Shown piece after piece: positions 425 through 19,668 of a DNA stretch of 26,595 nucleotides. How positions within the stretch are numbered: position 1 is the first letter of the stretch; each line of letters starts with the position of its first letter. The position numbers and the translations under genes are program-made. The stretch covers positions 1 through 26,595 of the forward strand of contig CAZFXB010000003.1 of the NCBI GenBank assembly GCA_964522835.1. Direction: 5' to 3'. Source of the stretch: an uncultured Oscillospiraceae bacterium (lineage in GTDB: Bacteria; Bacillota; Clostridia; Oscillospirales; Oscillospiraceae). The notes under the pieces were generated by a model. The model was not told where the DNA came from. It worked only from the letters and a program-made list of their open reading frames with translations, and did no database searches.

Positions 425-2050
425 TTAACCATCGATCTCCAGAATATATCCCTTTTTCCCGGAATATTCGCTGACCGAATTGGCGGCATCGTTGAAGTAC
501 CAGCTTCCGTCCACCTTAAACATGGACAAATAGGTTTCTTCGCCGCCGCTGGGCTCACCGGGATACCATGCGGTAAAGTTCATAGACTCACCGGTTCCCC
601 AGGTGGAAACATCCCAATCATCTACGCTGTTTACGTTCATGTTCAGCCACATAAAGACCAGACCGTTGGCATCCGCCAGCTGGGCAGCCTTGTTGAATTC
701 CTCCTCAGAGGTCACAGTCAGAATATGTCCACCTTTTGCCTCTGCATCTGCCTTTGCTTCCCACCACGTATAATTTCCGGACACGATCTTATAGGTATTA
801 CCATTGAGGGTAAAGCTTGTTGCCGGAGTGGGTGTGGGAGACGGGCTGGGCGAAGGAGTGGGGCTGGGCGAGGGCTTGGCCGTGGGAGTAGCTGTGGGCT
901 TTGCCGTGGGTGTGGGGGTTGCAGAAGGCTTCACCGTGGGTGTGGGGGTAGCTGTGGGGGTTGCCGTAGGAGTCACCACAGCCTGCTCCTGCTCCTTAAT
1001 AACGGTAGAGCCCTGTCCAGCCGTGGGGCTGGGCGCTGCCGTAGTCTCAGGGGATGTGCTGGGGGATGCCTCCGGATCCGTCTCTCCTGCTCCCGGGGCG
1101 CTGGGAGAGGGCGGTACAATCACGCCTGTGCTGGGGCTGGGCGAGGGAGTCGGTTCTTTTTCCTGCTCCTCCTCTGCCGCCTGATTCAGGCTGGCCAGAC
1201 CGGCAATGGCTGCGGAGTTGCTGGGATCCAGCTTCTCCAGAACGGTGTCATAGCAATTTTTAGCCGTAACCATATCACTTTCAGACTTAGCCTCGTCGCC
1301 CATCTTCAGATAGGCATCAATAGCCGCCTTTTTCAGACCGCTGTCCTTCAGCTCCTGGAATCCCCGCAGATATGCATCTGCCGCCTTATCCGGCTCTTCC
1401 ACCGTCTCATAGGTGGTTCCCAAAAGCTCATAGGTCTCTACCGTGGCCTCGCCGCTGGCAATTATATTCTCCAGCTGAGCAATGGCCTCCTGGTAGTTTG
1501 CTTCGTTATACTGCTGCTGGGCCAGCGTCATAGGTGTCTCTTCCTGATTAGATCCCACGATGCCCAGTTTAAAGGCCATCACAACGCCCACTGCGATCAC
1601 TGCCACCAGCAGAATTGCCGCAATCACCGTAACGATCAGTCCGTTCCGCTTTCCTGGATCCAGGGGATTCTTACGCACACCGGGGTTTGATGCCTCTTCC
1701 GCCAGATTGTTTTTGCCCCGGCTGAAGCTATAGCCCTCTCGGCTTTCCCCATCGGAAGTATCATATTCGCTGTAGCTCATATCCCCGTTCTCGTAGCCGC
1801 TGCTCTGGTCGGGGCCGGGGTAGAGATTGGCGTTGGGATCTACCCCTCCTGTGTTGCCGCCGAAAGCAGTGTACTGCTGGGTATAGTCCACATCAGCAGG
1901 CTGCTGATAACGTTCATAGGCCACAAACTCGTCATTCTCCTCGGTAAAGGGGGTACCGCAGGAGGGACAGAACTTCGCCGCCACAGATACGGATTGACCG
2001 CACTGGGGACAAATCTTGTAAACAGAGGAAGTATCGGACATATATTTCAT
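425..2050 (-). CDS. Membrane-anchored surface protein: zinc ribbon, TM helix, TPR-like region, Pro/Thr linker, C-terminal C-type lectin-like domain
   Basis: CPQC/CPSC zinc ribbon; hydrophobic LIVTVIAAILLVAVIAVGVVMAF; TPR-like helices (YQEAIAQLENII, TYELLGTTYETVEEPDKAADAYLRG); CTLD motifs TWWEAKADAEAKGGHILTVTSEEE and WYPGEPS...FND. Confidence 0.85.
   Translation of the reverse strand: MKYMSDTSSVYKICPQCGQSVSVAAKFCPSCGTPFTEENDEFVAYERYQQPADVDYTQQYTAFGGNTGGVDPNANLYPGPDQSSGYENGDMSYSEYDTSDGESREGYSFSRGKNNLAEEASNPGVRKNPLDPGKRNGLIVTVIAAILLVAVIAVGVVMAFKLGIVGSNQEETPMTLAQQQYNEANYQEAIAQLENIIASGEATVETYELLGTTYETVEEPDKAADAYLRGFQELKDSGLKKAAIDAYLKMGDEAKSESDMVTAKNCYDTVLEKLDPSNSAAIAGLASLNQAAEEEQEKEPTPSPSPSTGVIVPPSPSAPGAGETDPEASPSTSPETTAAPSPTAGQGSTVIKEQEQAVVTPTATPTATPTPTVKPSATPTPTAKPTATPTAKPSPSPTPSPSPSPTPTPATSFTLNGNTYKIVSGNYTWWEAKADAEAKGGHILTVTSEEEFNKAAQLADANGLVFMWLNMNVNSVDDWDVSTWGTGESMNFTAWYPGEPSGGEETYLSMFKVDGSWYFNDAANSVSEYSGKKGYILEIDG
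820..975 (-). repeat. Intragenic Pro/Thr/Ser tandem repeats (TPTA/TPTP/SPSP linker)
   Basis: Repeated GTGGGTGTGGGGGT-like units on + strand encoding TPTATPTATPTPTVKPSATPTPTAKPTATPTAKPSPSPTPSPSPSPTPTP. Confidence 0.85.
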
Positions 2051-2231: not shown

Positions 2232-2260
2232 TAGAAAAACCGCACAATGTGCGGTATACT
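2232..2260 (+). promoter_or_regulatory. Candidate sigmaA promoter of nagZ with a palindromic operator in the spacer
   Basis: TAGAAA-17nt-TATACT; perfect 8-1-8 palindrome ACCGCACA-A-TGTGCGGT at 2239-2255. Confidence 0.55.
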
Positions 2261-2293
2261 ATCCACATCAAACAAACATACCGGAGGTTCTAT

Positions 2294-3625
2294 ATGGCCA
2301 AACGAATTATCATTTCACTGCTTCTGATTATTTTGATCGTTGCGGTGGTCGCTGGAGGGGCCACTTTTGTGTTCTCCAGCCAATACGACTCTCTCCAGTC
2401 TCTGGAGCATGAAGTCGCAGACCCTGCCGAGGAGCCCACTACCAAAGTGGTTCTGACTGACGGCACAACCTCATCCTTGGCTCCCGCAAAAAAGCCCACC
2501 ATGCTGGAGGACTACGGCTCCATTCAGGAATCCCAGCCCCAGATTCAGGCTCCTGTCGTTCAAACCAATATCAACACCTCCACGGTGCAGACCATGCTCG
2601 GCAGCATGACCCTGGAAGAAAAGATTTATCAGATGCTGTTTGTTACCCCCGAGGCCCTGACCGGCTATAACAAAGTCACCCAAAGCGGCAGCGCCACCCG
2701 CTCCGCACTGGAGTCCAGGCCTGTGGGCGGTATCATCTACTTTTCTGACAATCTGATTTCCGTAGACCAGACAACGGAAATGATCTCCAATATCCAGTCC
2801 TACTCCACCGAGCTGACAGGACGGGGACTGTTCATCGGCATCGACGAAGAGGGGGGCACTGTGGCTCGTGCTGCCGACTCCCTGGGTACCACCGCCTTTG
2901 ATGACATGGTCACCTACGGCAGTGCCGGAGATACCGACGCAGTCTATGAGATTGGTGCCACCCAGGCCAGCGAGCTTACCGCTCTGGGCTTCAATGTCAA
3001 CTTCTCTCCCGTGGCAGATGTGCTCACCAACGACGAGAACACCGTGGTCAAAGTTCGCAGCTTTGGCTCCGATGCCGCTCTGGTTTCCGACATGGTCTCC
3101 ACAGTGGTCTCTGGCCTCCGGGACGGTGGGATGCTCTCCTGTCCCAAGCATTTCCCCGGCCATGGCAGCACCGGCGGCGACACCCACAATGGCTATGCTT
3201 CCTCTGACCGTACTCAGGAGGAGTTGGCTCAGTGCGACTTAAAGCCCTTTGAGGCTGCCATTGCCGCAGGCGCCCCCATGATTATGGTAGGCCACATGAC
3301 CATGACCCAAATCGATCCGGATCACCCTGCTTGTCTCTCCCCCGCCATTGTCACCGGTCTTCTCCGGGAGCAGCTTGGCTATAACGGTATCATCATTACA
3401 GATGCCCTTAATATGGGTGCCATCACAGATAACTACTCCTACTCCGAGGCTGCCATTGCCGCCATCTCTGCCGGCTGTGACATGCTGCTGTGTGTCTCCA
3501 ATATTGACACCGTGGTAAGCGCTGTGGCCGCTGCTGTGGCAGACGGCACCATCCAGGAATCCCAGATCAACGACAGCGTCCTTCGGATTCTCACCGAAAA
3601 AGCCCGCTACGGTATTATCTCCTGA
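2294..3625 (+). CDS. nagZ: GH3 beta-N-acetylhexosaminidase with N-terminal membrane anchor
   Basis: KHFPGHGSTGGDTH catalytic motif, IGIDEEGGTVAR, IITDALNMGA. Start moved to ATG 2294 because of GGAGG at 2283-2287; hydrophobic N-terminal helix. Confidence 0.85.
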   Translation: MAKRIIISLLLIILIVAVVAGGATFVFSSQYDSLQSLEHEVADPAEEPTTKVVLTDGTTSSLAPAKKPTMLEDYGSIQESQPQIQAPVVQTNINTSTVQTMLGSMTLEEKIYQMLFVTPEALTGYNKVTQSGSATRSALESRPVGGIIYFSDNLISVDQTTEMISNIQSYSTELTGRGLFIGIDEEGGTVARAADSLGTTAFDDMVTYGSAGDTDAVYEIGATQASELTALGFNVNFSPVADVLTNDENTVVKVRSFGSDAALVSDMVSTVVSGLRDGGMLSCPKHFPGHGSTGGDTHNGYASSDRTQEELAQCDLKPFEAAIAAGAPMIMVGHMTMTQIDPDHPACLSPAIVTGLLREQLGYNGIIITDALNMGAITDNYSYSEAAIAAISAGCDMLLCVSNIDTVVSAVAAAVADGTIQESQINDSVLRILTEKARYGIIS

Positions 3626-3668: not shown

Positions 3669-4233
3669 ATTCCAAATACCCCAGTCGCTGTTCCCACGCC
3701 CCCTGAGATCGTTTTCGCAGATCCTCCAGTGCCACCGTCTCTTGAACGGTTGTGCTGGTTCGAATGTCATAATAAGAAAGTGTCACTGTTACCTTCATGT
3801 GACAGGGCATAATGCACTCCAGTACCCGCAGCTGAAACACAGGATCCTTGGCAATCACCATTTTCTCCTTCATGGTCACCTGGCAGCAAAAGGGCTCCGT
3901 TGACTCCGAAATCATCACCGGAATGCCGCAGGCCTCCAGCGTCTTCGTCAGTCTTTCCCTGCTTCCCCACTGGGTATCCACCGAAAACAGCGCCGACAGT
4001 GCTTCTCTTCGGCTGGTTGTGCCGTTGGATGCCAGCATTGGAAACAGCCCCTCTGCCAGCGACAGTCCGTTCCCCGTGGCAGTCCCTGGATCAATCTCTT
4101 TGATATATTGCTCCATCTGCTGCTGAACATCGTCCATACCGTTTCCCAATGCCTTCAGCTCACCCAGGTTGTATCCGCTGTCCCTGTACACCCCCAAAGG
4201 CTCCAGCATTCCCCAAAGATAATCAAAATACAT
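3667..4233 (-). CDS. Baseplate wedge protein, gpI / Mu gp48 / DUF2313-like (188 aa)
   Basis: Immediately downstream of baseplate J with TAATG overlap and GGAGG RBS; start MYFDYLWGML at 4233. Size, position and the 'CIMPCHMKV' end fit this class. Confidence 0.6.
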   Translation of the reverse strand: MYFDYLWGMLEPLGVYRDSGYNLGELKALGNGMDDVQQQMEQYIKEIDPGTATGNGLSLAEGLFPMLASNGTTSRREALSALFSVDTQWGSRERLTKTLEACGIPVMISESTEPFCCQVTMKEKMVIAKDPVFQLRVLECIMPCHMKVTVTLSYYDIRTSTTVQETVALEDLRKRSQGAWEQRLGYLE

Positions 4234-5282
4234 TAAATTCCCTCCAGCGTAATGGTGCCCAAAAGCAGCCGCTGTCCCGCCTCCGGGGTCATATCTGCCG
4301 CCGGCTTGGTAAACACAATGTTGTCTATGGCCCCTGTGGACATAGCTTTGCTGCAAAGTGCCGCCTTGTACAGTGTTTTCCCCAAAGCCAGCGATCCAAT
4401 GTAATCGCCAAGGGCCTGTTCCACCACGGTTTTTGCCTGAGATACCGAGTAGCCCTCTGCCGGAAGTATGGTCGCCTTAACTGTTACCACCACATTTTCC
4501 GGCTCCTGAACCACTACCGTAATTCCCAGCTCCCGCCGCTGCTCCAGCAGCGCATCCAGCTTGTCCAGTGCCCCCTGGGATACCTTCCCGCTGTCAGAGG
4601 TGACCAGCAGCCCCACAGACCCGGCCCCGTTCATCTGCGGCACCACCGATACCCCGTCGATCCCATCTACGCTCAGGGCCAGCTCCCGATAAAACGCCGC
4701 ATTTGTGCCGTTGTTCAGCCCCTTGTAGGATTCCAAGATTCTGCTTCGGTAATCCTCATCCGTTTCTCGACTTCGGCCGCCCGAAAACCGCTGTGGATTT
4801 GTCACCAGCTCCACCCCATCCGGCGGTGTCTGCATTACCGTAATACTCTTCGCCACTGCATTGCCCTGGGGCCCCGGTTCCACAGCCTGGGCTGCAATGT
4901 CTGCAGAGGTGCTTCCCGCCAGAATAATCCCGCTGTCTACAGTCTCAAAGGCCGTCCCCTCGCTGCTGAGGCAAATCGTCCCCTGTTCAATTCCCAAGGG
5001 TGCCGCCAACGGACTGGAAATCGAAAACCGAAGAGTTCCCGTAGCCTTTCGTTCCTCCAGCCGTGCAAGTCCCCGCCGCTGTCCGTGGAGATCCAGGCTT
5101 TCTTCCTGGGCCGTCTGCGGAAAGGCCTGTCGGTAAATGTAGTCTCCGTAGTGATAAAGTGCCATCAGCTGTGCCGCCGCTGCCTGAAACCGCACCGCCA
5201 AATCCCCGGTTGTCCCAATTTCATACCCGGTTTCCTCCTCAAAAAACGCCAGCATATCCTGATATATCTCTGCCTGTGTCAT
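4233..5282 (-). CDS. Baseplate J / Mu gp47 / XkdT-like protein
   Basis: Motifs QTAQEESLDLHGQRRGLARL, ATGTLRF, AVEPGPQGN, GGRSRETDEDYRSRI, GTNAAFYRELALSVDGI. Confidence 0.9.
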   Translation of the reverse strand: MTQAEIYQDMLAFFEEETGYEIGTTGDLAVRFQAAAAQLMALYHYGDYIYRQAFPQTAQEESLDLHGQRRGLARLEERKATGTLRFSISSPLAAPLGIEQGTICLSSEGTAFETVDSGIILAGSTSADIAAQAVEPGPQGNAVAKSITVMQTPPDGVELVTNPQRFSGGRSRETDEDYRSRILESYKGLNNGTNAAFYRELALSVDGIDGVSVVPQMNGAGSVGLLVTSDSGKVSQGALDKLDALLEQRRELGITVVVQEPENVVVTVKATILPAEGYSVSQAKTVVEQALGDYIGSLALGKTLYKAALCSKAMSTGAIDNIVFTKPAADMTPEAGQRLLLGTITLEGI

Positions 5283-5620
5283 TTTACTGTCACCTCCAAA
5301 TTCATTTCATTTCCCTCATAGCCAAGCTCCAGCTCCACCAGCATTGGCTCCCCGCTCGTTACCACAGCGTCCTTCACCGTCAGTCCCAAAGGCTCCAGGG
5401 CCTCCCCGGCGTAGCGAATCGCCAGAGTTTTTCGCACCGATGGCTTCTCCCGGTATAGCGTATACAGTCTGCTGCCTACCTCCGGCATCAGCGAAAATGC
5501 CCCCCGGCGGGCCGTCAACTGAAACATGGCCTGCTCCAAAATCGCCTCCAGCCCGTAGGCCCGCTGAAATCCACCTGCGCCATCGGGCACATAATCCCCC
5601 TCCCGCAGTTTCAGGCTCAT
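5279..5620 (-). CDS. Baseplate wedge gpW/gp25 / Mu gp46-like protein (113 aa)
   Basis: LTARRGAFSLMPEVGSRLYTL and 'AIRYAGEALEPL' pattern; directly upstream of J with ATGA overlap. Confidence 0.75.
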   Translation of the reverse strand: MSLKLREGDYVPDGAGGFQRAYGLEAILEQAMFQLTARRGAFSLMPEVGSRLYTLYREKPSVRKTLAIRYAGEALEPLGLTVKDAVVTSGEPMLVELELGYEGNEMNLEVTVK

Positions 5621-5984: not shown

Positions 5985-6920
5985 TCAGCTCATTTCCCGC
6001 ATACGCAGCCTGCACTGTTTTCCCCCATCGCCCAGGCTGTTTTCTGTTTCTGTCACAAGAAATCCCCCGGAAATACCCATCTCCGGCAAATTCACCGTCA
6101 CAATATCCATGGGTTCTGCCCAAAACAAGTTGGGCAGCGTCACCTCCAGCGTGCGAAACTCCTTTTGGGAATCCATCAGCACTTGATTGGGCGAACTGAG
6201 CCCCGCCCTGCACCGATTCTTTCTTGGAACTGTCATCCGGCGGGTGGCACATCCGCCCAGCTTTTGAAATCTGCCGTTGTCCACCTGCTGTTCATAATAC
6301 GTGCCCACATATTGGGCCATAACCCGGCTGTAGACTCCGTATCGGGTCTGCCTCCACTGTGTTTTTTCCACCTCATTTGGATCCAGGCTCCGTCTTGTCC
6401 CGGTTTTTGAGGAAATCAGCAATGTGCCATCGGGTAAAAATCTGGGCTGAACCCCAGCCGCCCACAGACAAAATCCAGATAGGGCATCCCAGCAATCTGT
6501 TCCGTAGTCCACTGCATAGGTTGAAAGCCAATAGTTTTCCCCATACTGCACCGCCGGAAGGTTGTATGGCTCCGCATAATTTCTTAAAATATCCTTCAAT
6601 CTGACCCAGTAGTACACCCGCTCTGGCACCTCATTGTCCATCAGCAGTCCTGCCAGTCCCCGGCCATAGATCTCCCCTGTCATGCCTCTGTCGTCCCTCG
6701 TCACCTCATACTCATCCACGATTCCGCAGAATCGCTGTGTATCCCCCTCCCATGCTTCCAATCTCACCCCTCTGCTGAGGATTTTCTCCCAAGAGCTGTC
6801 CCAGCGAAAGCCCACCGAAAAGCTGTCGCTGCTGGTTCCGTCTGTATGTATAAATTGCCACTTCGTCAGCACAGGCAGACCTACCCTGCTGCCATCATTC
6901 AAAATCACCACAGCCTTCAC
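5985..6920 (-). CDS. Baseplate hub / late-control protein (XkdQ / Mu gp44-like, 311 aa)
   Basis: GTG start at 6920 overlaps the LysM gene stop (GTGA). FCGIVDEYEV...GEIYGRGLAGLLMDN pattern; position after the LysM gene. Confidence 0.75.
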   Translation of the reverse strand: MKAVVILNDGSRVGLPVLTKWQFIHTDGTSSDSFSVGFRWDSSWEKILSRGVRLEAWEGDTQRFCGIVDEYEVTRDDRGMTGEIYGRGLAGLLMDNEVPERVYYWVRLKDILRNYAEPYNLPAVQYGENYWLSTYAVDYGTDCWDALSGFCLWAAGVQPRFLPDGTLLISSKTGTRRSLDPNEVEKTQWRQTRYGVYSRVMAQYVGTYYEQQVDNGRFQKLGGCATRRMTVPRKNRCRAGLSSPNQVLMDSQKEFRTLEVTLPNLFWAEPMDIVTVNLPEMGISGGFLVTETENSLGDGGKQCRLRMREMS

Positions 6921-7447
6921 GGGATCACCACCATTCTGCCCACCGTCAGGCTGTTGGGGTTCTGTATCCACGTGTTGGCCTTCAGCAGTTCTTCAGCCGT
7001 GGTGCCGTACAGCTCTGCAATTTGCCACAGATTCTGTCCCGCCTGTACGCTGTGATTGCCCGAGGTTTTCGCCCCCTGCTGCACCACTGTACCATCTCCA
7101 TCCTCCCAGAACGAGAACCGATACTTCACGTAGTCCTCCCTGGGCTCCTGAATCAGCTCCAGCTCCTGAAACCAGGCCCGATTCATATCGATCACCGGGT
7201 GAACCAATACCCCAGTTCCCCCCTCATAGAATACCGCCAACAGAGCCTGCATCGTTTCATAGGCCCCTGCTCCGTAGAATTCCCCCTCGCCTGTCAGTAC
7301 CCGTATATTTTTCCCCAGATCCTCCAGTCCGCAGCCCCGTCCCGGAAATCTGTGCGCAACCAGCTCCCGGCTGGTACTGAGCTGATAGGAATAGGGATTG
7401 TTGGGCCATATAAAATCTTTATACCGCATATTCAGCACCTGCTGCAC
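6917..7447 (-). CDS. Tube-initiator protein with C-terminal LysM (XkdP-like)
   Basis: C-terminal HSVQAGQNLWQIAELYGTTAEELLKANTWIQNPNSLTVGRMVVIP is a clear LysM; position between the tape-measure slot and the hub. Confidence 0.85.
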   Translation of the reverse strand: MQQVLNMRYKDFIWPNNPYSYQLSTSRELVAHRFPGRGCGLEDLGKNIRVLTGEGEFYGAGAYETMQALLAVFYEGGTGVLVHPVIDMNRAWFQELELIQEPREDYVKYRFSFWEDGDGTVVQQGAKTSGNHSVQAGQNLWQIAELYGTTAEELLKANTWIQNPNSLTVGRMVVIP

Positions 7448-7450
7448 CCC

Positions 7451-7963
7451 CTAAGAATATCTTCTGGCGTCCCGTTGAAAAAACATAGAAAGCCGTTCCG
7501 GCTCCATGGCATTCTGAACCCGCTCCGGCTCCATAGCCTGCCGTCCCTGCCCATTGGCTCCGAATGCGGCTCCTGTTGTTTCGCCTGTTCCTCCGTTTAT
7601 GCGTCCCGTAGCCAGTATTTCCCGCCAGAGCCCCACTTGTTCCAGATAAGCCGCCCCATCCTTAATTTCCACCTGTTGTCTTGTTTGGAGCTCCTCCGAT
7701 TGCCGAATTCCCGCCAGTACCCGCTCCAGCGTTCTCGTTCTCTGCTGCCCCTTCCATGCTCCGGTGTCCTTTTCTTTTTCATTTTCACCTGTCCCACGAC
7801 CGGGCCCATTGTGTTCCGATGGTTCCTCCGTCTTCTGCCCATTGGTCATGCCATTTTCTCCAGACACCAGATATTCCTCCAGCCTTCTTCTCACTTGCTC
7901 CCCACTGTGCTCCTGTGTCCCGTCCTGCTGTTCCAATAAAACCTTCAGAATATAGTCATCCAC
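7451..7963 (-). CDS. 170-aa protein at the tape-measure position (putative mini tape measure)
   Basis: Position between chaperone and LysM genes; low-complexity, helical/charged composition. No sequence motif recognised. Confidence 0.45.
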   Translation of the reverse strand: MDDYILKVLLEQQDGTQEHSGEQVRRRLEEYLVSGENGMTNGQKTEEPSEHNGPGRGTGENEKEKDTGAWKGQQRTRTLERVLAGIRQSEELQTRQQVEIKDGAAYLEQVGLWREILATGRINGGTGETTGAAFGANGQGRQAMEPERVQNAMEPERLSMFFQRDARRYS

Positions 7964-10094: not shown

Positions 10095-10568
10095 TCACAG
10101 CATCAATGCCTTCACCCGGAAATCGCTCAGCGCAACTCCGCTGTCTGTCTCCGTGCCATAGGCCATAATTCGGCTCTGTACCGTAATTTCCTGTCGAAAG
10201 CAGTCCCGCAGACTATCATACTGGGCCTCAGCGCACAGAATCTCCTGTACCCCCAGCTGCCCCACTGCCAGCAGCACTGCGTTCATGATTTCTTCCCCAA
10301 AGGCCTCTGCCTCCGGTGCCCCCAGTTCCTTCGGGGTCAGCAATACCAGCGCAAATGTAACCGTCAGCTCTGCCCCATAGACCTCATTGCCGTCAATGTC
10401 CAGCCCCAGATACTGCTGAAAGGCCCCCTGGGCTCCGGTGATCTGCCGAAGGGAAACGAACACACCCTTCTCCTTCTGTAAGGGCCCCATTTTCCAGGCC
10501 CCGCCGTCTGCCGCCGAGATTCCTGCCTGCTTCAGTGCCGCTTTCAGCGCAGCTTTAAGCTCCTGCAT
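10095..10568 (-). CDS. Putative tail terminator / completion protein
   Basis: 157 aa directly upstream of the sheath gene; position-based call. Confidence 0.5.
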   Translation of the reverse strand: MQELKAALKAALKQAGISAADGGAWKMGPLQKEKGVFVSLRQITGAQGAFQQYLGLDIDGNEVYGAELTVTFALVLLTPKELGAPEAEAFGEEIMNAVLLAVGQLGVQEILCAEAQYDSLRDCFRQEITVQSRIMAYGTETDSGVALSDFRVKALML

Positions 10569-10899
10569 CTTCGCTCCCTCCCTGGATCAGCAGTGCCCAC
10601 CAATATAAGTTTTCTCCCGCTGCCTCATATCGTTCCTTCCTGCGCAGGAAAAATGTTCTTTCCCCAGCCGTCACCGTGTGTACCTCTGTCAGATCCACCT
10701 CCGGCAGTCCAAAGTATTGATAGCTTCCCGGTGGAAAATATCCATCCGGCAGGGCCGCAATGCTTCTGGCGTTTTCCGAAACACTATGTACCGGGTCAAT
10801 GATGGCTCTGGTCTCCTGGTCGCCCCATTTTCCCTTCAACACCACAGGCTGTCCCAGCAGCCGGATTTTTTCTCCAATGCTTTCGCCCATCTGTTTCAT
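10555..10899 (-). CDS. Putative head closure (SPP1 gp16-like) protein
   Basis: 114 aa beta-rich protein following the connector gene; start ATG 10899 right after the upstream TAA. Confidence 0.5.
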   Translation of the reverse strand: MKQMGESIGEKIRLLGQPVVLKGKWGDQETRAIIDPVHSVSENARSIAALPDGYFPPGSYQYFGLPEVDLTEVHTVTAGERTFFLRRKERYEAAGENLYWWALLIQGGSEDAGA

Positions 10900-10900
10900 A

Positions 10901-11236
10901 TTAAACCCTCTGAAATCCAAAGCTCTGATCCTTCATCCAGGGTCTCAGCAATTCTATCGCCGCCGAGGTGAATCGGTCTCCCTCCTGACTGACCGACAGG
11001 CTGACGGAACCAGCAGCAAAGCTGCTGATGGCTCCCTCCCCTACGCCGTCCTCCCAGGCTTTTGCTGCCAATGCAGCCACTGCAACAGGGAATGCCTTTC
11101 CGCAGTCCTCCACGGTCACATCCTCCTTCAGCCGCATTTTGAGGGAGTTGTACGCACTCTGGCACAAGGCCGCCAAAAGCGTATCGTCCTTTTCGCCACC
11201 GGATATTTCGGCTGCCATGGTCAAAATCTCGTCCAT
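10901..11236 (-). CDS. Head-tail connector (SPP1 gp15 / HK97 gp6-like)
   Basis: Directly after the capsid gene; helical N-terminus plus 'ISSFAAGSVSLS' hairpin typical of this class. Confidence 0.7.
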   Translation of the reverse strand: MDEILTMAAEISGGEKDDTLLAALCQSAYNSLKMRLKEDVTVEDCGKAFPVAVAALAAKAWEDGVGEGAISSFAAGSVSLSVSQEGDRFTSAAIELLRPWMKDQSFGFQRV

Positions 11237-11237
11237 A

Positions 11238-12269
11238 TTACAACTTCAGCGCCTTCACCGCTTCTGTCTGGATTTTTACAAAGCCCACCATGCAGGTAAT
11301 GGCCGCACGCTCAATCTGCCGATCAATGAGCTTGTCATATTCCACTTCAACATCTCCTGCCTTCACCATCTCCAGGGCGTACCGACGATCCAGACCGATC
11401 ATGGTACCTGCCTCCAGGCTGTCATTCCGGATCAGCTTGGCACCCAGAGGGGAAATCACGTTGCCCTTGCTCTGGAAATCAAAACCTGCCAAAGGATTCT
11501 TCATTTCGTCCATATTCAGCAGCTTTACCATCATATCGGGCGCAACGATCAGCGTGTTCATCTCGTATGGATGGAACAGGCTCCAGAACTTCACCAGTGC
11601 CTCGTAATCGAGAACATCCTCGGTTCCGCCGATGGTAGCATCTCCGGGGGAATAGACCGGGGCCACATTCTCGTTGTCCTGACCGTCTCCCTCCAGCAGG
11701 CATTTGACTGCCTCATCCATAAGCTGTGCCTGCATGTGTGCACCGATCTGCCGCAGCATCACCGAAAACAGATCCAGCCGCTGGAACCGGATTGCCTCAT
11801 AGGATGCGCTGAGGATTCTGCCTCGTTTCCGCAGAGTCACATAGTTTTCCCTTGCGAAGATGTTCGTCTCCGGAATGGACGCACCCTCGGCCACCTCAGC
11901 CAGACTCTTCATCTCCTCCGAAGGGATCGAATACATGGATCTGTAGTCGTAGGAATTGATGTTGGTCACCGTTGAAACAATGTCTCCCAGGTGATCCTCC
12001 CCTTCCATACCCTGGTGGATCATTCTGTGAATGTATTCCGGAAAGAGAACCCTGGATTCCACCGTGGAGAAAAACTTGTCCACACAATCCGAGTTAGGGC
12101 CCTTTACCTTGATGTCAAACCGCTTGAGCTGCCGCTGAAAAGCGTCCAGATGCTCATAGGCAGTTCCCCGGTAGTTTTCACTGGGATCCAGCCGCTCCAG
12201 CACCTGAGAAAAGCTCTTTCCGCTTTCTCCATACATTCCCTTATCCAGTTTCAGATTATCAAATGCCAT
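11238..12269 (-). CDS. Major capsid protein, HK97 fold (343 aa)
   Basis: AEVAEGASIPET, VTLRKRGRILSASYEAIRFQRLDLF, 'EYDKLIDRQIERAAITCMVGFVKI...AVKAL' HK97-type motifs. Confidence 0.9.
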   Translation of the reverse strand: MAFDNLKLDKGMYGESGKSFSQVLERLDPSENYRGTAYEHLDAFQRQLKRFDIKVKGPNSDCVDKFFSTVESRVLFPEYIHRMIHQGMEGEDHLGDIVSTVTNINSYDYRSMYSIPSEEMKSLAEVAEGASIPETNIFARENYVTLRKRGRILSASYEAIRFQRLDLFSVMLRQIGAHMQAQLMDEAVKCLLEGDGQDNENVAPVYSPGDATIGGTEDVLDYEALVKFWSLFHPYEMNTLIVAPDMMVKLLNMDEMKNPLAGFDFQSKGNVISPLGAKLIRNDSLEAGTMIGLDRRYALEMVKAGDVEVEYDKLIDRQIERAAITCMVGFVKIQTEAVKALKL

Positions 12270-12286
12270 AGTAATCGCTCCTCTCT

Positions 12287-12634
12287 TTACAGTAAAAATG
12301 TGACATAACGTTCCGTGGTATCCACTGCAACCACCAGCCGGGGCACATTGCCCGCAATCCCGGAAAGGGCTTTTACGTATCCATTTCCGTCGGCCACCAG
12401 TTCACAATATCCCACCGTAGGAGCCGTCACCCCGCTATAGGGCATTTTGATAAATCCGCCCACCTGCATGGTTGCGTTTCCGTCCCGCTCCCAGAGGCAC
12501 ACCCCGTGAAATACATCCCCGTTGTCGCACCAGTATCCGGCGTCATTTTCGCTCACCTTGGACACACACCCCGGGCTCATGCCTTTATTCTTCAGTGTAA
12601 TGTCCACTTCTCCGATTCCATTGTAGCTGTACAT
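12287..12634 (-). CDS. Putative capsid decoration/cement protein (115 aa)
   Basis: Between protease and capsid genes; small Gly-rich beta protein (GDVFHGV...ATMQVGG...LVADGNGYVK). Confidence 0.55.
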   Translation of the reverse strand: MYSYNGIGEVDITLKNKGMSPGCVSKVSENDAGYWCDNGDVFHGVCLWERDGNATMQVGGFIKMPYSGVTAPTVGYCELVADGNGYVKALSGIAGNVPRLVVAVDTTERYVTFLL

Positions 12635-12654
12635 AAATGTTCCTCCTTAGTAAA

Positions 12655-12969
12655 TTAAATTCGATAGACCTCGCCGTCGCAGTCCTTTACAACATCTGCC
12701 GACAGCTGACTTTTCCCGCAGTGGAGCTGCTCCATTTTCTTTTGGAACCCCTTATGGAGCTTGTCCAGCACATCGTCCTCCAGTCCCATGGCCATTTCCT
12801 CCAGTTCCTTTCGGCTCAGTCCCAGTTCCAGTGCCACGCCCATCCGTGCAAAGTCCTGTTCCTTTTCGATTCGCTGGGCCTCTCCGTAGCTGGCCAGTGC
12901 CTTCAGCTTGGCAAGCTCCTTTTTCAGCCCTTCCAGTCCGCTTTTCTCCACATACTCCTTCAAACCCAT
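12655..12969 (-). CDS. Putative nested in-frame scaffold protein (104 aa)
   Basis: Perfect SD AAAGGAGGTGA (12974-12984) upstream of the in-frame ATG at 12969, right after the protease domain ends. Confidence 0.6.
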   Translation of the reverse strand: MGLKEYVEKSGLEGLKKELAKLKALASYGEAQRIEKEQDFARMGVALELGLSRKELEEMAMGLEDDVLDKLHKGFQKKMEQLHCGKSQLSADVVKDCDGEVYRI

Positions 12970-13557
12970 ATATTCACCTCCTTTCCAGTGCTTCACCACC
13001 CCAGCCCTGGGCTGGGCCGGCACTGCCACAAAGGAGAATTCATAGGCATCCAGAGGCTCCTGTAAGATTCCAATACACATCTCCCCCTCGTAATATTTGC
13101 CCGGCACATGGCCGCAGGCACCGATCTCCCCGCCGCAGATGGAGCAGGTCTTTCGCCCCATGCTACAGGATATGCTGACCTCCCGGCGAATGCCGCTTTC
13201 AATATCATGGATTACTTCCTCTTTTCCCTTTCGGGGTATATAGGCCCAGCCCCGTAGCCAGGAGCTCTCCGGTTCCCGTACCACTTCTGTGTCGAAAACC
13301 CGTGCCACCTGCTTCTCTGCGGACCAGTTGTGATCCACAATGCCGGGTTTTCCCACAAACAGCTTCCCCAGGGTCTCCAGCGCCTCACGGTCAAACTGTT
13401 CGTAGTCCCGATCCACCTGATCGTCGCAGAGCCGGACAGAAAAGGCATATACCTCCTCTGATGTAAGGGCTGTTTTGCTTTGGAGATTGATTTTCTCCAA
13501 CTGACCATCATCCGGCACTCCGCCGGGAAGGCCCATTCCCTGTTTATTGATCTTCAT
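12655..13557 (-). CDS. Prohead maturation protease with C-terminal scaffold-like coiled coil (300 aa)
   Basis: GKPGIVDHNW (His), REVSISC (Ser), AYEFSFVAVPAQPRA (HK97-type protease end). RBS AAGGAGG before ATG 13557. Confidence 0.85.
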   Translation of the reverse strand: MKINKQGMGLPGGVPDDGQLEKINLQSKTALTSEEVYAFSVRLCDDQVDRDYEQFDREALETLGKLFVGKPGIVDHNWSAEKQVARVFDTEVVREPESSWLRGWAYIPRKGKEEVIHDIESGIRREVSISCSMGRKTCSICGGEIGACGHVPGKYYEGEMCIGILQEPLDAYEFSFVAVPAQPRAGVVKHWKGGEYMGLKEYVEKSGLEGLKKELAKLKALASYGEAQRIEKEQDFARMGVALELGLSRKELEEMAMGLEDDVLDKLHKGFQKKMEQLHCGKSQLSADVVKDCDGEVYRI

Positions 13558-14695
13558 GTGCTTCCTCCTTCTGTAAATTCTCAGCCTGTACCCGGTAAAG
13601 GGCGGTCTTGGCCTCCTCCACCATGTCCTGCAAGCTGATGTCCTCCCAAACCACCTCATAGCCGCAATCCCAGCCCTGGAGCCGCAGGAAGGTTTCCCCG
13701 ATCTTTTCCAGCACCGGGGTCACCGCCCGTCGAATGGCCCAAAGCTCCGAGGTCAGCATATCTGCCTGCTGCTGGCTCATCCGTTCCGTAGAGGCCCAAC
13801 TCAGCCCCAGCAGGAATGGGGGCAGTCCTGTTTTTGCCACCAGCTGTTCCAGAATCTGCCTTACCGGCACCTCCGAGTCCAGCACCGGGCCATCTGCACC
13901 AATGACTTTGATCTCCACATCGCCTACCGCCACAAAATCCCGAACCGCCCCGCTTTTGCTCTCCTCCATGGCCTGGCTCCACTCTCTGGCCATGGTAGAC
14001 AGTCTATGTTCCACAGTCCCCTGATCCACATTTTCTTCCCCGGGCCGATATACCACCGAGTAGCGCACATTGCCTGCCCGCTCCCAGTTTCGGCCCACTG
14101 TCTCGTAGATTTTCATCAGGATTTCTGTCAGAAACGGCATACTTCGGAACAGGCTCACCCCATAAGGGCTCCCCACCTCCGGATTCAATGTAGAAAACAG
14201 CAGCAGCTCCTGCCGGGGCAGCGGCATCATTTGTCCAAATTCATTGGGGCCGCAAATGGTAATGTCCAGCGGACTCTCCCCCTGCCGGATCTCCGCCTGG
14301 GTCACATCTCCCCACAGCACCGCCTGTACCCCCTCCGGCCCTGTGACCAGTTCCCCCAGGGCCCGGCCATAGGTCAGCATACTGTCGAGATACCCGCCCA
14401 GGAAGCCATCCAGTCCCACCTGTCCCCGGCCCACAGGCACCTTTCGGAGGAATTCCTCCATGGCCTTCTGCGCCCCCGGCGCAGTGCATTCAATGGTAAA
14501 CCCGCCAACCAACCGGATCAGCTTTCCCACCGCCGCATCCAGAATGGGTACGCTTTCCCGAATCCCCCGGTACAGCCGTTCCTGGCTGCCCCCCAAGGGG
14601 ATTTGGCTGCTCAGACCTCCAAAGCGAAGTCCCTGATCTGTCCGCAGCTGGGTAGCCTGTACACCGCCACCCCGGGCCTTCTTCCAAAATTTCAT
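13544..14695 (-). CDS. Portal protein (383 aa)
   Basis: Between large terminase and protease. NPEVGSPYGVSLFR, 'GNVRYSVVY', KTGLPPFLLGLSW portal-like motifs. Confidence 0.85.
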   Translation of the reverse strand: MKFWKKARGGGVQATQLRTDQGLRFGGLSSQIPLGGSQERLYRGIRESVPILDAAVGKLIRLVGGFTIECTAPGAQKAMEEFLRKVPVGRGQVGLDGFLGGYLDSMLTYGRALGELVTGPEGVQAVLWGDVTQAEIRQGESPLDITICGPNEFGQMMPLPRQELLLFSTLNPEVGSPYGVSLFRSMPFLTEILMKIYETVGRNWERAGNVRYSVVYRPGEENVDQGTVEHRLSTMAREWSQAMEESKSGAVRDFVAVGDVEIKVIGADGPVLDSEVPVRQILEQLVAKTGLPPFLLGLSWASTERMSQQQADMLTSELWAIRRAVTPVLEKIGETFLRLQGWDCGYEVVWEDISLQDMVEEAKTALYRVQAENLQKEEAHEDQ

Positions 14696-15954
14696 CGAAT
14701 TCCTCCTGTTCTTCTGGCCACCGCCTGGGCCCCAAAGGCCGTTTCCGTTCCGCCCAGTATGGTGGCCGCAAAATATCGCATATCGTCCATGGCGTGGTCA
14801 TATTCCTTCCGCACCGTGTCCTTGCCATTCTTATCGTCCCAGGCATACAGCTCCATTTCTCTGAGGCAGTCGCAGCAGCCGCTGCATATTTTGATTTTCC
14901 CGTTTTTCAGCAGCTCTGCCGTCCGCCGGATCCCAGATAGCACATCGTTGTCTGCCTTTTTCACATGCCACCCCTCTCTCCGGAGCAGCTCTGAAAAGCT
15001 GGCCGCCGATGGGTCAATCACCACCGCCCGGATTTTTCTTCCTCCTGCCAGCCTTGCAAGTGCCCTGGCATATTCCCCGTCTGTCAGCTGCCGTCCCTCC
15101 CGCTTGGAGTCGTAGTAGTATTCGTTCAGCCGATACCAAACCCCCGCCTTGCTGCCCCATAGCCCAAAGGATGTGGGATTCACCGTGCCATAGTCGCAGG
15201 AGATGTAGTATTCTCCACAGGGCTCCTCCGGCCTTTCCACCGCCATATCCTGGGTGAAAAAATCGTAAACCCGTCCCTCCACACTGACCCATTTCCCCAA
15301 TATAAAACGTTCGTAGAAGGTTCCGGTATAGAGCCTTTCGTATCTTTCCCGAATCTGTCTCGTCAGGGATGGGTTGTCCTCCATGGTAAAGTGTAAATAC
15401 AGCGCCTTCTTTTCGTTTGCCCCCAGGATCCACTCCTTGTAGAACCAGTGTCCCGGCCCCTCCGGGTTACAGTTGAACCAGATTCGGCTCCCAGACAGAG
15501 AGCAGCGGGCCATGGCCTGCTCCACAAAGCTTCTGGGCATCAGGGCCACCTCGTCCATCAGCACCCCGCCGAAGGTAACACCCTGGATCAAAGAGGCCGA
15601 CCCCTCGTCCTTGCCGCCGAACTGATAAAACTCATTGGTTCGCCCCTTCCAGGTCACCGTCAGCAAATTTTCCGACCTTTTTTCCGTACATTTCAGCCCC
15701 AGCTCTCCAAGCACCGGCACAATCTCCTTCAGTACATTTCGCCGGAGGGAAATAATCGTTCTTCCGCAGAGGCCAAACCGACTCCCGTTGAAGCAGCACA
15801 TGGCCCATAGGAAGAAGCTCAAGCTCATGCTCAGGGTCTTTCCCGACCGAACAGCCCCATCGCAGATAATGGCCTCCATTTTGTGATAGGGACTTTTCCC
15901 CGTCCACCAGGTCAATACCGTTTTCTGCTTCGGTGAAAAGCTGATCAGGGTCAT
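14692..15954 (-). CDS. Terminase large subunit, PBSX (XtmB-like) family
   Basis: Walker A DGAVRSGKT, Walker B VLMDE, FNCNPEGP, nuclease DYGTVNP and DHAMDDMRY. Confidence 0.95.
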   Translation of the reverse strand: MTLISFSPKQKTVLTWWTGKSPYHKMEAIICDGAVRSGKTLSMSLSFFLWAMCCFNGSRFGLCGRTIISLRRNVLKEIVPVLGELGLKCTEKRSENLLTVTWKGRTNEFYQFGGKDEGSASLIQGVTFGGVLMDEVALMPRSFVEQAMARCSLSGSRIWFNCNPEGPGHWFYKEWILGANEKKALYLHFTMEDNPSLTRQIRERYERLYTGTFYERFILGKWVSVEGRVYDFFTQDMAVERPEEPCGEYYISCDYGTVNPTSFGLWGSKAGVWYRLNEYYYDSKREGRQLTDGEYARALARLAGGRKIRAVVIDPSAASFSELLRREGWHVKKADNDVLSGIRRTAELLKNGKIKICSGCCDCLREMELYAWDDKNGKDTVRKEYDHAMDDMRYFAATILGGTETAFGAQAVARRTGGIR

Positions 15955-16241
15955 ACCCCCTCCCCCTCCTGTAGAGAGCGAAGAAATGCCTCCGCACCGT
16001 CCTCATCGGTTTTCAGCAGCTCCAGCAGCCGGTTCAGAATGCTGACCCGGTCAATAAGCTTCAGTTCAATGTTGCCGTTGACCCCTCGCTTCACCTCGCT
16101 GACCAGACTCAAATCCACATCAGCCTCTGTGCACCGGCCCTCCAGCAGTGCCGCACACTCGCTTCCGCTGCCAAAGCCCAGCCGCACCAGCCGTTCCAGC
16201 ACATCCTCGTACCCGATTTTCTCCTTCTGCTTTTCTTCCAT
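15951..16241 (-). CDS. Terminase small subunit-like protein (96 aa), no obvious HTH
   Basis: ATGA overlap with the large subunit; 'VSEVKRGVNGNIELKLIDRVSILNRL' resembles the TerS oligomerisation segment. Confidence 0.7.
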   Translation of the reverse strand: MEEKQKEKIGYEDVLERLVRLGFGSGSECAALLEGRCTEADVDLSLVSEVKRGVNGNIELKLIDRVSILNRLLELLKTDEDGAEAFLRSLQEGEGV

Positions 16242-16308
16242 AAAAAATCTCCCTTCACCCATATTCTCCCAACTCTGGTTTTTTGCCTATTTTTCTGTCC
16301 TCTTTTCC

Positions 16309-17293: not shown

Positions 17294-17632
17294 ATGGTGG
17301 GAATGCGGATTGCACAGCTTCGGCGGGAAAATAACATGACCCAGAGGGATCTGGCCCTGGCCCTGAATGTATCCCCCAGTGCCATTGGCATGTATGAACA
17401 GGGAAGGCGGCAGCCCTCGGCAGATTTAATCGTGAACATCTGTCAAACCTTCTCTGTCAGCACCCAATGGTTGCTCACTGGGCGGCCCTATACAGGCAGA
17501 GATTTTCAGGAGGATTTGAAAATGCTGCTGCAAACCCCTGGGCCTGAGGGAGAAACAAGGGTGGATTTGGAGGAAGTGGAGCATCTGCTGCGGGAACTGG
17601 GGAAAAGTTGTGCCGAAACCGGGATATCCTGA
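17294..17632 (+). CDS. Xre/Cro-CI family HTH repressor (112 aa, no S24 peptidase domain)
   Basis: RIAQLRRENNMTQRDLALALNVSPSAIGMYEQGRRQPS HTH_3 signature; divergent from the phage-like operon. Confidence 0.9.
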   Translation: MVGMRIAQLRRENNMTQRDLALALNVSPSAIGMYEQGRRQPSADLIVNICQTFSVSTQWLLTGRPYTGRDFQEDLKMLLQTPGPEGETRVDLEEVEHLLRELGKSCAETGIS

Positions 17633-17640
17633 AAAAATGC

Positions 17641-17669
17641 TTGATTTGTGGCGGAATATTGGGTATGAT
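17641..17669 (+). promoter_or_regulatory. sigmaA promoter of metG
   Basis: TTGATT-17 nt-TATGAT, 8 nt after the repressor stop codon. Confidence 0.65.
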
Positions 17670-17712
17670 AAAATGTACCGAAATACCGGAATTTTTTGAG
17701 GAGGGGATTTTT

Positions 17713-19668
17713 ATGGAAAAGAAATCCTATTATATATCCACCGCCATTGCGTACACCTCGGCCAAGCCCCACATTGGCAACACCTACGAGGTAATTCTGG
17801 CCGATGCCATTGCCCGCTATAAGAGAATGACCGGCTACGATGTTTACTTCCAGACCGGCACCGACGAGCATGGTCAGAAGATCCAGCAGAAGGCAGAGGC
17901 CGCCGGGATCACCCCCCAGCAGCACGTAGATAATGTTTCAACTGAGATTCGCCGGATCTGGGATCTGATGAACACCAGCTATGACAAGTTCGTTCGCACC
18001 TCCGACCCGGAGCACAAGGCCAAAGTGCAGAAGATTTTCAAGAAGATGTACGACAAGGGCGACATCTACAAGGGAAAATACGTGGGCAAGTACTGCACCC
18101 CCTGTGAAAGCTTCTGGACAGAGAGCCAGCTGGTGGACGGCAAATGCCCCGACTGCGGCCGTGAGTGCGTGGATGCGGAGGAGGAGGCTTACTTCTTCCG
18201 TATGAGCAAGTACGCTGACCGGCTCATGGACTACATCAACGAGCATCCCGACTTCATCCAGCCTGAGAGCCGGAAAAACGAGATGATTAACAACTTCCTA
18301 AAGCCCGGCCTCCAGGATCTGTGTGTGTCCAGAACCTCCTTCTCCTGGGGTATTCCTGTGGAGTTTGACCCCGGCCACGTGGTCTATGTGTGGCTGGATG
18401 CCCTGACTAACTACATTACCTTCTGTGGCTATGACCCCGATGGGAACCACGAGGAGCACTATAAGAAGTTCTGGCCTGCGGATGTACATCTCATCGGCAA
18501 GGACATTATCCGGTTCCACACCATCTATTGGCCCATCTTCCTGATGAGCCTGGGCGAGGAGCTGCCCAAGCAGGTATTCGGTCATCCCTGGCTGCTGGTG
18601 AACAACGGCAAGATGAGTAAGTCTGTGGGCAATGTGATCTATCCCGATGATCTGGTGGAGCTGTTCGGCGTAGATGCTGTCCGGTACTACGTGCTTCACG
18701 AGATGCCCTTTGCCAATGATGGCGTTCTGACCTACGAGCTGATGATCGAACGAATCAACTCCGAGCTGGCCAATATTCTGGGCAACCTGGTGAACCGTAC
18801 CATCGCCATGGATCAGAAATACTTTGGCGGCAAGATTATGAATCCCTGCGCCGGAGAGCCCGTGGACGAAGAGCTGAAGGCTGTTGCTCTGGCCATGCCG
18901 GAAAAGGTGGAGCAGAAAATGGCTGGCCTCCACGTGGCCGATGCCATCGACGAGATTTTTGTACTGCTGCGCCGGGCCAACAAATATATCGATGAGACCA
19001 TGCCCTGGGCCCTGGCCAAGGATCCTGCCAAGTCCGACCGACTGGGCACCGTGCTCTACAACCTGCTGGAGTCCATCCGGTTTGCAGCGGTCATGCTTGA
19101 GGCTTATCTGCCCGAAACTGCCCAGAAGATCTTTAAGCAGCTGAATGTGGAGAATCAGGGTGTGGAATCCCTCCGTGAGTTTGGCCAGATGCCTGTGGGC
19201 GAGTCCGTTGGCACCGCCGAGATTCTCTTCGCACGAATCGATGCCAAGAAAAAGCTGGAGGAAATCGAGGCCCAGAAGGCCGCTAAGGCTGCCGCCGAGG
19301 CAAAGCCCGAGGAGCCCCGGGAGGAGCCTGTCACCTTTAAGGAGAACATCAATTTTGATGACTTTGAGAAGGTGGACATGACCGTGGTAAAGGTTCTCGA
19401 ATGCGAGAATGTAAAGAAATCCAAGAAGCTCCTTCGGTTCACCCTGGACGACGGCAGCGGCACCCCCCGGCAGATTCTGTCCGGCATTGCCCAGTTCTAT
19501 AAGGCTGAGGAACTGGTAGGCAAGACCCTGGTGGCCGTCACCAACCTGGCCCCCAGAAAGATGATGGGTCTGGAGTCCTGCGGTATGCTGCTGTCTGCCG
19601 AAAAGGGCGAGGGTCTGAACCTGCTGATGCTGGATGACAGCATTCCCGCTGGTGCCAAGCTCTGCTAA
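17713..19668 (+). CDS. metG: Methionyl-tRNA synthetase with C-terminal tRNA-binding domain
   Basis: HIGN and KMSKS motifs, CTPC/CPDC knuckle, C-terminal OB domain (RQILSGIA...[17 protein letters not shown]). Start ATG 17713 after GAGGGG. Confidence 0.97.

Follow-up and report, generated by a model that had tools for sequence, protein, structure and literature searches.

A short protein in the tape-measure slot of a chromosomal contractile-tail cluster of Oscillospiraceae as a probable minimal tape measure

The morphogenesis cluster and the gene in the tape-measure slot

The window, by which the whole stretch of 26,595 nucleotides from an uncultured Oscillospiraceae bacterium is meant, has 19 morphogenesis genes closely packed on its minus strand between 16262 and 3667 (Table 1), whose tail part runs in the order sheath, tube, chaperone, an open reading frame (ORF) of 170 codons, DNA_circ_N protein, hub, spike and gp46/47/48-like genes. 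The tube protein is 58–97% identical among the loci retrieved, and a second sheath gene, sought in the genome to which the window belongs (80% complete), was not found. The gp43 (DNA circularisation protein N)-like domain of the window takes up ~120 aa, the gp43 of Haemophilus phage SuMu having 451 aa. The baseplate operon ends with the gp48/gpI-like gene, after which there are no fibre, holin or endolysin genes, and a search of the window cluster identified no integrase, replication or fibre genes; lysis genes are also absent here. In a few other genera a CHAP or a Peptidase_M15_4 gene lies just downstream (2/46 each). On both sides the cluster is flanked by host genes, of which the GH3 glycosidase gene, together with that of a Zn-ribbon protein (425–2050, minus strand), is syntenic in two related loci, L002 and L009; the former is a 44.8-kb metagenome contig with the whole cluster adjoining the same GH3 gene.

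Table 1. Features of the cluster, of the slot gene and of the flanks, in positions of the window, with fused forms in related loci given in the positions of those loci
Feature	Position	Strand	Evidence and remarks
Host methionyl-tRNA synthetase (metG)	17608-19668		flanks the cluster
Head/neck module: small and large terminase, portal, protease/scaffold, 115-aa protein, major capsid, three neck genes	10095..16262	(-)	Pfam, synteny with L002 and all loci
Tail sheath, 347 aa	8985..10028	(-)	PF04984, PF17482
Tail tube protein, 129 aa	8580..8969	(-)	phrog_27038, E 9e-48
Tail assembly chaperone, 207 aa	7956..8579	(-)	weak phrog_25000 and double Zn-ribbon matches
170-aa protein in the tape-measure (TMP) slot	7451..7963	(-)	GTG start, TAG stop; no Pfam/PHROG family
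Conserved N-terminal helix, residues 1-14, MxDYxExxL...	7922..7963	(-)	alignment, AF2 helix 2-14, dN/dS 0.13
Hypervariable spacer, residues 15-153	7505..7921	(-)	predicted helices 20-38 and 67-118, Gly/Glu/Gln-rich coil; dN/dS 0.66
Conserved Arg-rich C-terminal helix and motif, residues 154-170, ...FFQRDARRYS	7454..7504	(-)	alignment; AF2 helix 155-169; dN/dS 0.21
Mu gp43/P2 gpU-like N-terminal domain with LysM, 176 aa	6917..7447	(-)	PF07157, PF01476; phrog_184, phrog_16855
Baseplate hub (gpD/gp44-like), 311 aa from GTG 6920	5985..6920	(-)	phrog_177; orthologues 294-317 aa
Small spike/plug protein, 117 aa	5617..5970	(-)	phrog_25991; 116-117 aa in L002 and L176
gp46/gpW-like wedge gene	5279-5620	(-)	Pfam set for wedge genes: PF07409, PF04865, PF10076
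Baseplate_J wedge gene	4233-5282	(-)	Pfam
gp48/gpI-like wedge gene	3667 to ~4233	(-)	Pfam
Host GH3 glycosidase	2249-3625	(+)	flanks the cluster; next gene after baseplate
Fused chaperone-slot ORFs	L051:8433-9068, L060:6578-7255, L027:9189-10052, L084:8379-9275

The 170-aa ORF is real and under selection. Its frame is open across all 170 codons, it begins at a GTG within GTGGATGA that overlaps the TGA of the chaperone gene, the overlap with the end of that gene being 8 nt, it has a GAGGAG 9 nt 5′ of the start as ribosome-binding site, and its TAG is followed after only 3 nt by the GTG of the DNA_circ_N and LysM gene. This short gap and the overlap at the start leave no space for pseudogene remnants, so that the preliminary description, which had seen here a single intact ORF coupled to its neighbours and free of such remnants, is borne out by the frame and the junctions, just as the Pfam and PHROG matches agree with its naming of those neighbours as chaperone and LysM genes. 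The GTG start is confirmed by the N-terminus (MDDYI...), which is conserved among orthologues. Purifying selection acts at both ends of the protein (dN/dS 0.13 over the first 20 codons and 0.21 over the last 25) and is relaxed in the middle (0.66), the overall value being 0.30–0.47 against two close relatives and that of the adjoining genes 0.08–0.19. An ORF of 305 aa on the opposite strand (7022–7939) is most simply a shadow frame, because its GC3 mirrors the GC1 of the sense genes.

The identity of the slot is given by its position, directly after a G/GT-type chaperone pair and before the baseplate hub genes. The chaperone of the window is an in-frame fusion of a "G-like" A domain and a C-terminal Zn-ribbon "T-like" B domain, and in relatives, among them Intestinimonas, Flavonifractor, Pseudoflavonifractor, Evtepia and others, the same protein is encoded by two overlapping ORFs, A with ~127–146 aa and the Zn-ribbon B in the −1 frame, joined by a conserved in-phase slippery heptamer, A_AAA_AAA; the string CTAAAAAAAGCCTGGAG is present in 34/160 loci. 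Examples of the two-ORF form are found at L031:10387-11024 and in L024, L062, L066, L081 and others. In the clade of the window an in-frame fusion has made A and B one ORF, without the slippery site, so that only the long "GT-like" product can form. A programmed G/GT frameshift ahead of TMP genes was reportedly described by Xu, Hendrix and Duda in 2004 for long-tailed phages. The gene order, in turn, is that of SuMu, the only true phage with a detectable, although weak, sheath similarity, in which sheath, tube, chaperone and a small ORF are followed by gp42, gp43, gp44, gp45, gp46, gp47, gp48 and the fibre gene, gp42 being a TMP of 787 aa with the PF10145 domain, gp43 a DNA-circulation protein, gp44 the hub and gp45 the spike. 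The conserved frameshift signal upstream in relatives and the identical order in SuMu strengthen the assignment, and the 170-aa ORF occupies the TMP slot.

The overlap of 8 nt with the chaperone stop might also be read in another way, namely that the ORF is a frameshifted "T" extension of the chaperone, or that the true TMP is a long one encoded at another place in the genome, given that GTA systems can be multi-locus and that this genome is a metagenome-assembled genome (MAG), 80% complete. The first form was rejected: relative to the chaperone the ORF is read in the +1 frame, it runs back no further than two codons beyond its GTG, is served by its own GAGGAG and has a conserved N-terminal motif of its own, and it is the Zn-ribbon B domain, already fused in the window, that represents the true −1 extension. 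As for the second, a long TMP elsewhere would have told against the preliminary description, and searches of the window genome with the TMP families PF10145, PF20155 and PF06791 found no match, a result that is weak because the genome is a MAG of 80% completeness. Taken together, the two forms of this explanation are very improbable.

Length and anatomy of the slot protein in its relatives

By position a TMP, the protein has neither the usual size of one, which is several hundred to more than 1,000 residues, nor a match to the sequence families of TMPs (Pfam PF10145 PhageMin_Tail, PF06791 TMP_2, PF20155 TMP_3; PHROG). Pfam and PHROG searches with the 170-aa protein gave no match at E values up to 0.1, a PDB sequence search with the family profile matched no chain at E up to 10, and a search of the ESM Atlas for look-alikes gave no usable match. 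Its TMP-like traits are long helices predicted, with modest confidence, by AlphaFold2, shifts of length by insertion and deletion and, at the locus L084, a spacer lengthened by a tandem repeat of 39 nt (13 residues).

The preliminary description had drawn attention to a gene of only 170 codons at the TMP position, and the obvious objection would be that this copy has suffered a deletion. However, no long gene occupies the slot in any of the 141 related loci in which the interval was measured, 75 from genomes and 66 from IMG/VR. Between the stop of the tube gene and the start of the LysM gene there are 647–1477 nt in the former and 427–1521 nt in the latter, and the ORF with the C-terminal motif has 85–304 aa (median 184) in the genome loci and 102–298 aa (median 186) in those from IMG/VR; in all, orthologue lengths were obtained from 135 loci, and these lie between 85 and 304 aa, none of them long. 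Seven near homologues found with a word-index search have 136–170 aa. Among 1.84 billion cluster representatives, 1,778 matched the family profile at E up to 0.001; the best 150 of these are all of 283 aa or less, and 147 of them, at 71–283 aa (median 188), align almost without exception over their full length. Longer relatives (481–2000 aa) were sought with the family alignment and none was found, which is weak evidence. The comparison of sequences thus indicates a shortness that is ancestral and universal in the family, not a local accident, and this in clusters whose tube and sheath are otherwise alike and whose slot protein varies 3.5-fold in length.

The same protein is also more changeable than its neighbours. 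Between the window and the loci L002 and L006 the adjoining proteins are 50–97% identical (49–91% with the contig L002), whereas the slot protein keeps only its ends, and with the copy in L002 it aligns over the last 26 residues only. When the genomes of 40 relatives were searched with the single 170-aa protein, a match appeared only in its own genome; the search is nearly blank because the slot protein has diverged, not because the cluster is absent.

In an alignment of 40 orthologues only ~15 N-terminal residues (MxDYxExxL...) and ~25 C-terminal residues are conserved, with a mean column identity of 18% over the whole length and many insertions and deletions. The C-terminal part has the form ...S/DRxFxRDARRY, followed in most cases by DGGFxLY, and the conservation of this end, which the preliminary description had proposed to examine, is plain: R164, D165, R167, R168 and Y169 vary little or not at all among the 40 sequences. 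The clade of the window (with L002, L006, L009, L010, L012, L018, L019 and L055) stops at RDARRYS/G, without DGGFxLY. The spacer that joins the two ends, rich in A, G, E, R and P, has neither a constant sequence nor a constant length. For the window protein AlphaFold2, run on this alignment, predicts helices at 2–14, 20–38, 67–118 and 155–169 (58% helix; pLDDT 66.7), and for the orthologue of Intestinimonas massiliensis an N-terminal helix at 2–31 (pLDDT ~90) and short helices at 102–115 and 143–157, the rest being coil (36% helix; pLDDT 64.8). Since the content of P and G has a median of 16% in the family versus 9.9% in the SuMu TMP, the slot protein would not be a rigid helical ruler of the classical kind.

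In some lineages (L051, L060, L027, L084, L069, L016, L017 and L035) a single ORF of 211–298 aa spans the whole interval from tube to LysM, in which a reduced chaperone part that keeps the FDxxRF motif is followed by a low-complexity spacer and the RDxRRY C-terminus. Such a fusion to a reduced chaperone is unusual for a ruler, and it brings forward the explanation that the slot protein has kept the terminal anchors of a former TMP and no longer measures, acting instead as a plug of the hub or of the tube lumen, as a nucleator of assembly or as a pilot protein that is ejected, in which case the length of the tail would be set by the kinetics of the terminator or by the supply of subunits and need not be ultra-short. 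Against this, the length of the tube follows the TMP in the tailed phages studied so far, the cluster encodes no other candidate for a length determinant, and rulers too vary in length between lineages. The explanation is nevertheless kept in play by the 3.5-fold natural range of lengths and by the disordered spacer, which is nearly unconstrained (85–304 aa, dN/dS 0.66) and large parts of which are predicted to be coil, and the chaperone fusions also speak for it, as does the fact that the short TMP of RcGTA, the gene transfer agent of Rhodobacter capsulatus, has itself been likened to a tail needle (PMC7296036). On balance we consider it unlikely, if not markedly so.

Distribution and probable long residence in the chromosome

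With the tube-protein alignment, and scanning one genome per species, at least 405 carriers were found, and those with a name are all Oscillospiraceae-type Clostridia: Flavonifractor, Oscillibacter, Intestinimonas, Pseudoflavonifractor, Lawsonibacter, Dysosmobacter, Evtepia and Colidextribacter. Within the family the tube profile detects the cluster in 83/201 sampled species and 68/134 genera (genomes G000–G234), in the genus of the window in 5/21 species, and in every carrier as a single copy. Several congeners with genomes that are 99–100% complete are without it. This patchy, single-copy distribution suggests the repeated loss, or the occasional transfer, of an old element. Housekeeping genes make up the flanks, which are not the same from genus to genus, and no integrase is found among the top 25 families of 46 upstream and 46 downstream neighbour ORFs; because the flanks are so diverse and free of integrase among these top families, they suggest long residence rather than recent decay. 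Prophage calls in IMG/VR are mostly of ~13–15 kb, that is, the cluster alone.

A tblastn search of 50,697 phage genomes with the tube and sheath gave two unverified faecal contigs and the weak match to the SuMu sheath, and no close true phage showing an ancestral long TMP was found among these genomes. The two contigs, L007 (MT835769.1) and L008 (MT837832.1), are labelled "UNVERIFIED Bacteriophage sp.", come from Mexican human faecal samples and represent the chromosomal cluster; in the first, from a faecal virome, the cluster runs into the host genes for PNP, a racemase, thyA, DHFR and recG. They are either host DNA in preparations of virus-like particles (VLPs) or contamination.

If the lack of integrase, replication, fibre and (here) lysis genes and the patchy presence in the family and in the genus are given their full weight, the slot ORF could be what a deletion left behind in a prophage fragment that is in decay, has lost its function and makes no tailed particle at all. 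This, however, is quite improbable, in that the 19 genes are without exception intact and coupled in translation, more than 135 loci, spread over many genera and with one copy each time, have the short slot gene open and conserved at its termini, the gene and its neighbours are under purifying selection, and the varied housekeeping flanks show no integrase among their top families. With only structural and packaging genes, a chromosomal position, one copy and host flanks, the cluster has instead the characteristics of GTA- and PBSX-like elements.

Among these, PBSX of Bacillus subtilis, whose xkdK–xkdU tail module contains XkdO, a TMP of ~1,300 aa, is alike in being a chromosomal, defective, structural-only element of Firmicutes with the order sheath, tube, chaperone, TMP, LysM, hub and baseplate; it differs from the window in its long TMP, its tail of ~200 nm and its lysis and fibre genes, the window having a miniature ruler and no fibre gene. 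As regards the TMPs of Mu-, P2- and PBSX-like systems in general (for example SuMu gp42), the slot protein shares with them the position of the gene, helical segments and a length that evolves by insertions, deletions or repeats, but it is 4–5 times shorter, has no detectable sequence homology to them, is largely disordered in its middle in place of forming a continuous helix, and carries no hydrolase or other domains.

Nearer to the hosts considered here, FpGTA of Faecalibacterium prausnitzii and a GTA-like packaging of host DNA in gut Oscillospiraceae (Onthomonas, Pelethomonas) have been described (PMC12946183; 10.64898/2026.07.08.737213), the gene clusters responsible for the packaging signals in Oscillospiraceae not being identified there. 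The likeness lies in the gut Oscillospirales themselves, in structural-only clusters and in small packaged DNA fragments from VLPs; unlike the cluster of the window, FpGTA is podovirus-like and has neither sheath nor tube. In the papers searched, no description of a cluster of the window type or of its particles was found.

A proposed tether-like tape measure and the probable length of the tail

A precedent in size is the TMP of RcGTA, g11 (Rcc01694), which has 216 residues, ends in a C-terminal helix and whose trimer fills five tube hexamers and the distal tail protein (PMC7296036). Like the slot protein in the reading preferred below, it is a very short TMP of a domesticated, structural-only particle, and a C-terminal helix is predicted for the slot protein too; RcGTA differs in a non-contractile tail of the siphovirus type, in an unrelated gene family and in a more regular N-terminal helix of 113 residues, and no sequence relation between g11 and the slot protein was detected.

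That the tape measure sets the length of the tail is a textbook rule, and the rulers of contractile tails normally have 600–1,300 residues; a slot protein of 170 residues therefore makes an unusually short tail probable. How short depends on the way in which the chain is assumed to be laid out: (i) at 0.15 nm per residue, 170 residues would give ~25 nm; (ii) with the ratio found in RcGTA, and a ring rise of ~4 nm, the estimate is ~19 nm; (iii) with the predicted helices at 0.15 nm and the coil fully extended, an upper limit of ~40 nm is reached; (iv) and finally, a chain extended throughout would set the absolute limit at ~60 nm. These models make a very short tail likely. Of the proposal in the preliminary description, a tail of at most ~25 nm, the short tail stands as likely, and nothing was found in the sequences searched that would refute it, but 25 nm is no hard bound, because the rule fits alpha-helical rulers and only ~36–58% helix is predicted here, with a hypervariable spacer, and also because the orthologues vary 3.5-fold in length and the slot protein matches no TMP family.

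The reading that we prefer, with a probability of about 60% taken as a whole, is that the slot protein is a minimal, tether-like tape measure giving a very short contractile tail to a GTA/PBSX-like particle, encoded by a chromosomally fixed element of head and contractile-tail structural genes only, which is widespread in Oscillospiraceae. By analogy with long-tailed phages, the protein would be the client of the G/GT-type chaperone whose gene immediately precedes its own, and would come to lie inside the lumen of the tube, with one end probably held in the hub complex (gp43-like protein, gpD-like hub and spike) and the other placed at the distal end of the tube. With a conserved helix as anchor at each end and, between them, a spacer that evolves fast and is partly disordered, the protein could in this manner stop the polymerization of tube and sheath after a few rings, which for the present copy would be ~4–7 rings or 15–30 nm, and at most ~40–60 nm with the coil fully stretched. 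The location in the lumen, the partners of the anchors, the function as a ruler and the length of the tail are all parts of the model that we infer.

To what was already apparent in the locus, the present analysis adds a G/GT slippery site that is conserved in relatives and that an in-frame fusion has removed from the clade of the window, and also the two-anchor architecture with its region-wise dN/dS, the fused chaperone-ruler forms and a family of 1,778 representatives. Extended to the family of hosts, the preferred reading leads to a more tentative proposal, which we hold at slightly under even odds: that hundreds of species of gut Oscillospiraceae make a DNA-carrying particle whose contractile tail, of 4–7 rings (~15–30 nm), is set by a flexible tether of two anchors and a spacer and not by a rigid helical ruler. 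The tails of myoviruses measure 80–455 nm, far above this range, and to our knowledge ~15–30 nm also lies below the known extracellular contractile injection systems. If the proposal is true, the natural lengths of 85–304 aa would correspond to a graded series of stub tails, and, as this series exists in nature and there are cultured carriers (Intestinimonas, Flavonifractor, Pseudoflavonifractor, Oscillibacter), the ruler hypothesis is directly testable.

A family of contractile tails whose ruler is shorter than usual by a factor of 4–10 would show how small a working sheath-and-tube injection machine can be, and raises the question of how a stroke of ~10 nm could cross a cell envelope. It is plausible that clusters of the window type are candidates for the machinery behind the GTA-like packaging in gut Oscillospiraceae, and, if they are that machinery, the design of this tail would bear on the movement of genes in the human gut microbiome.
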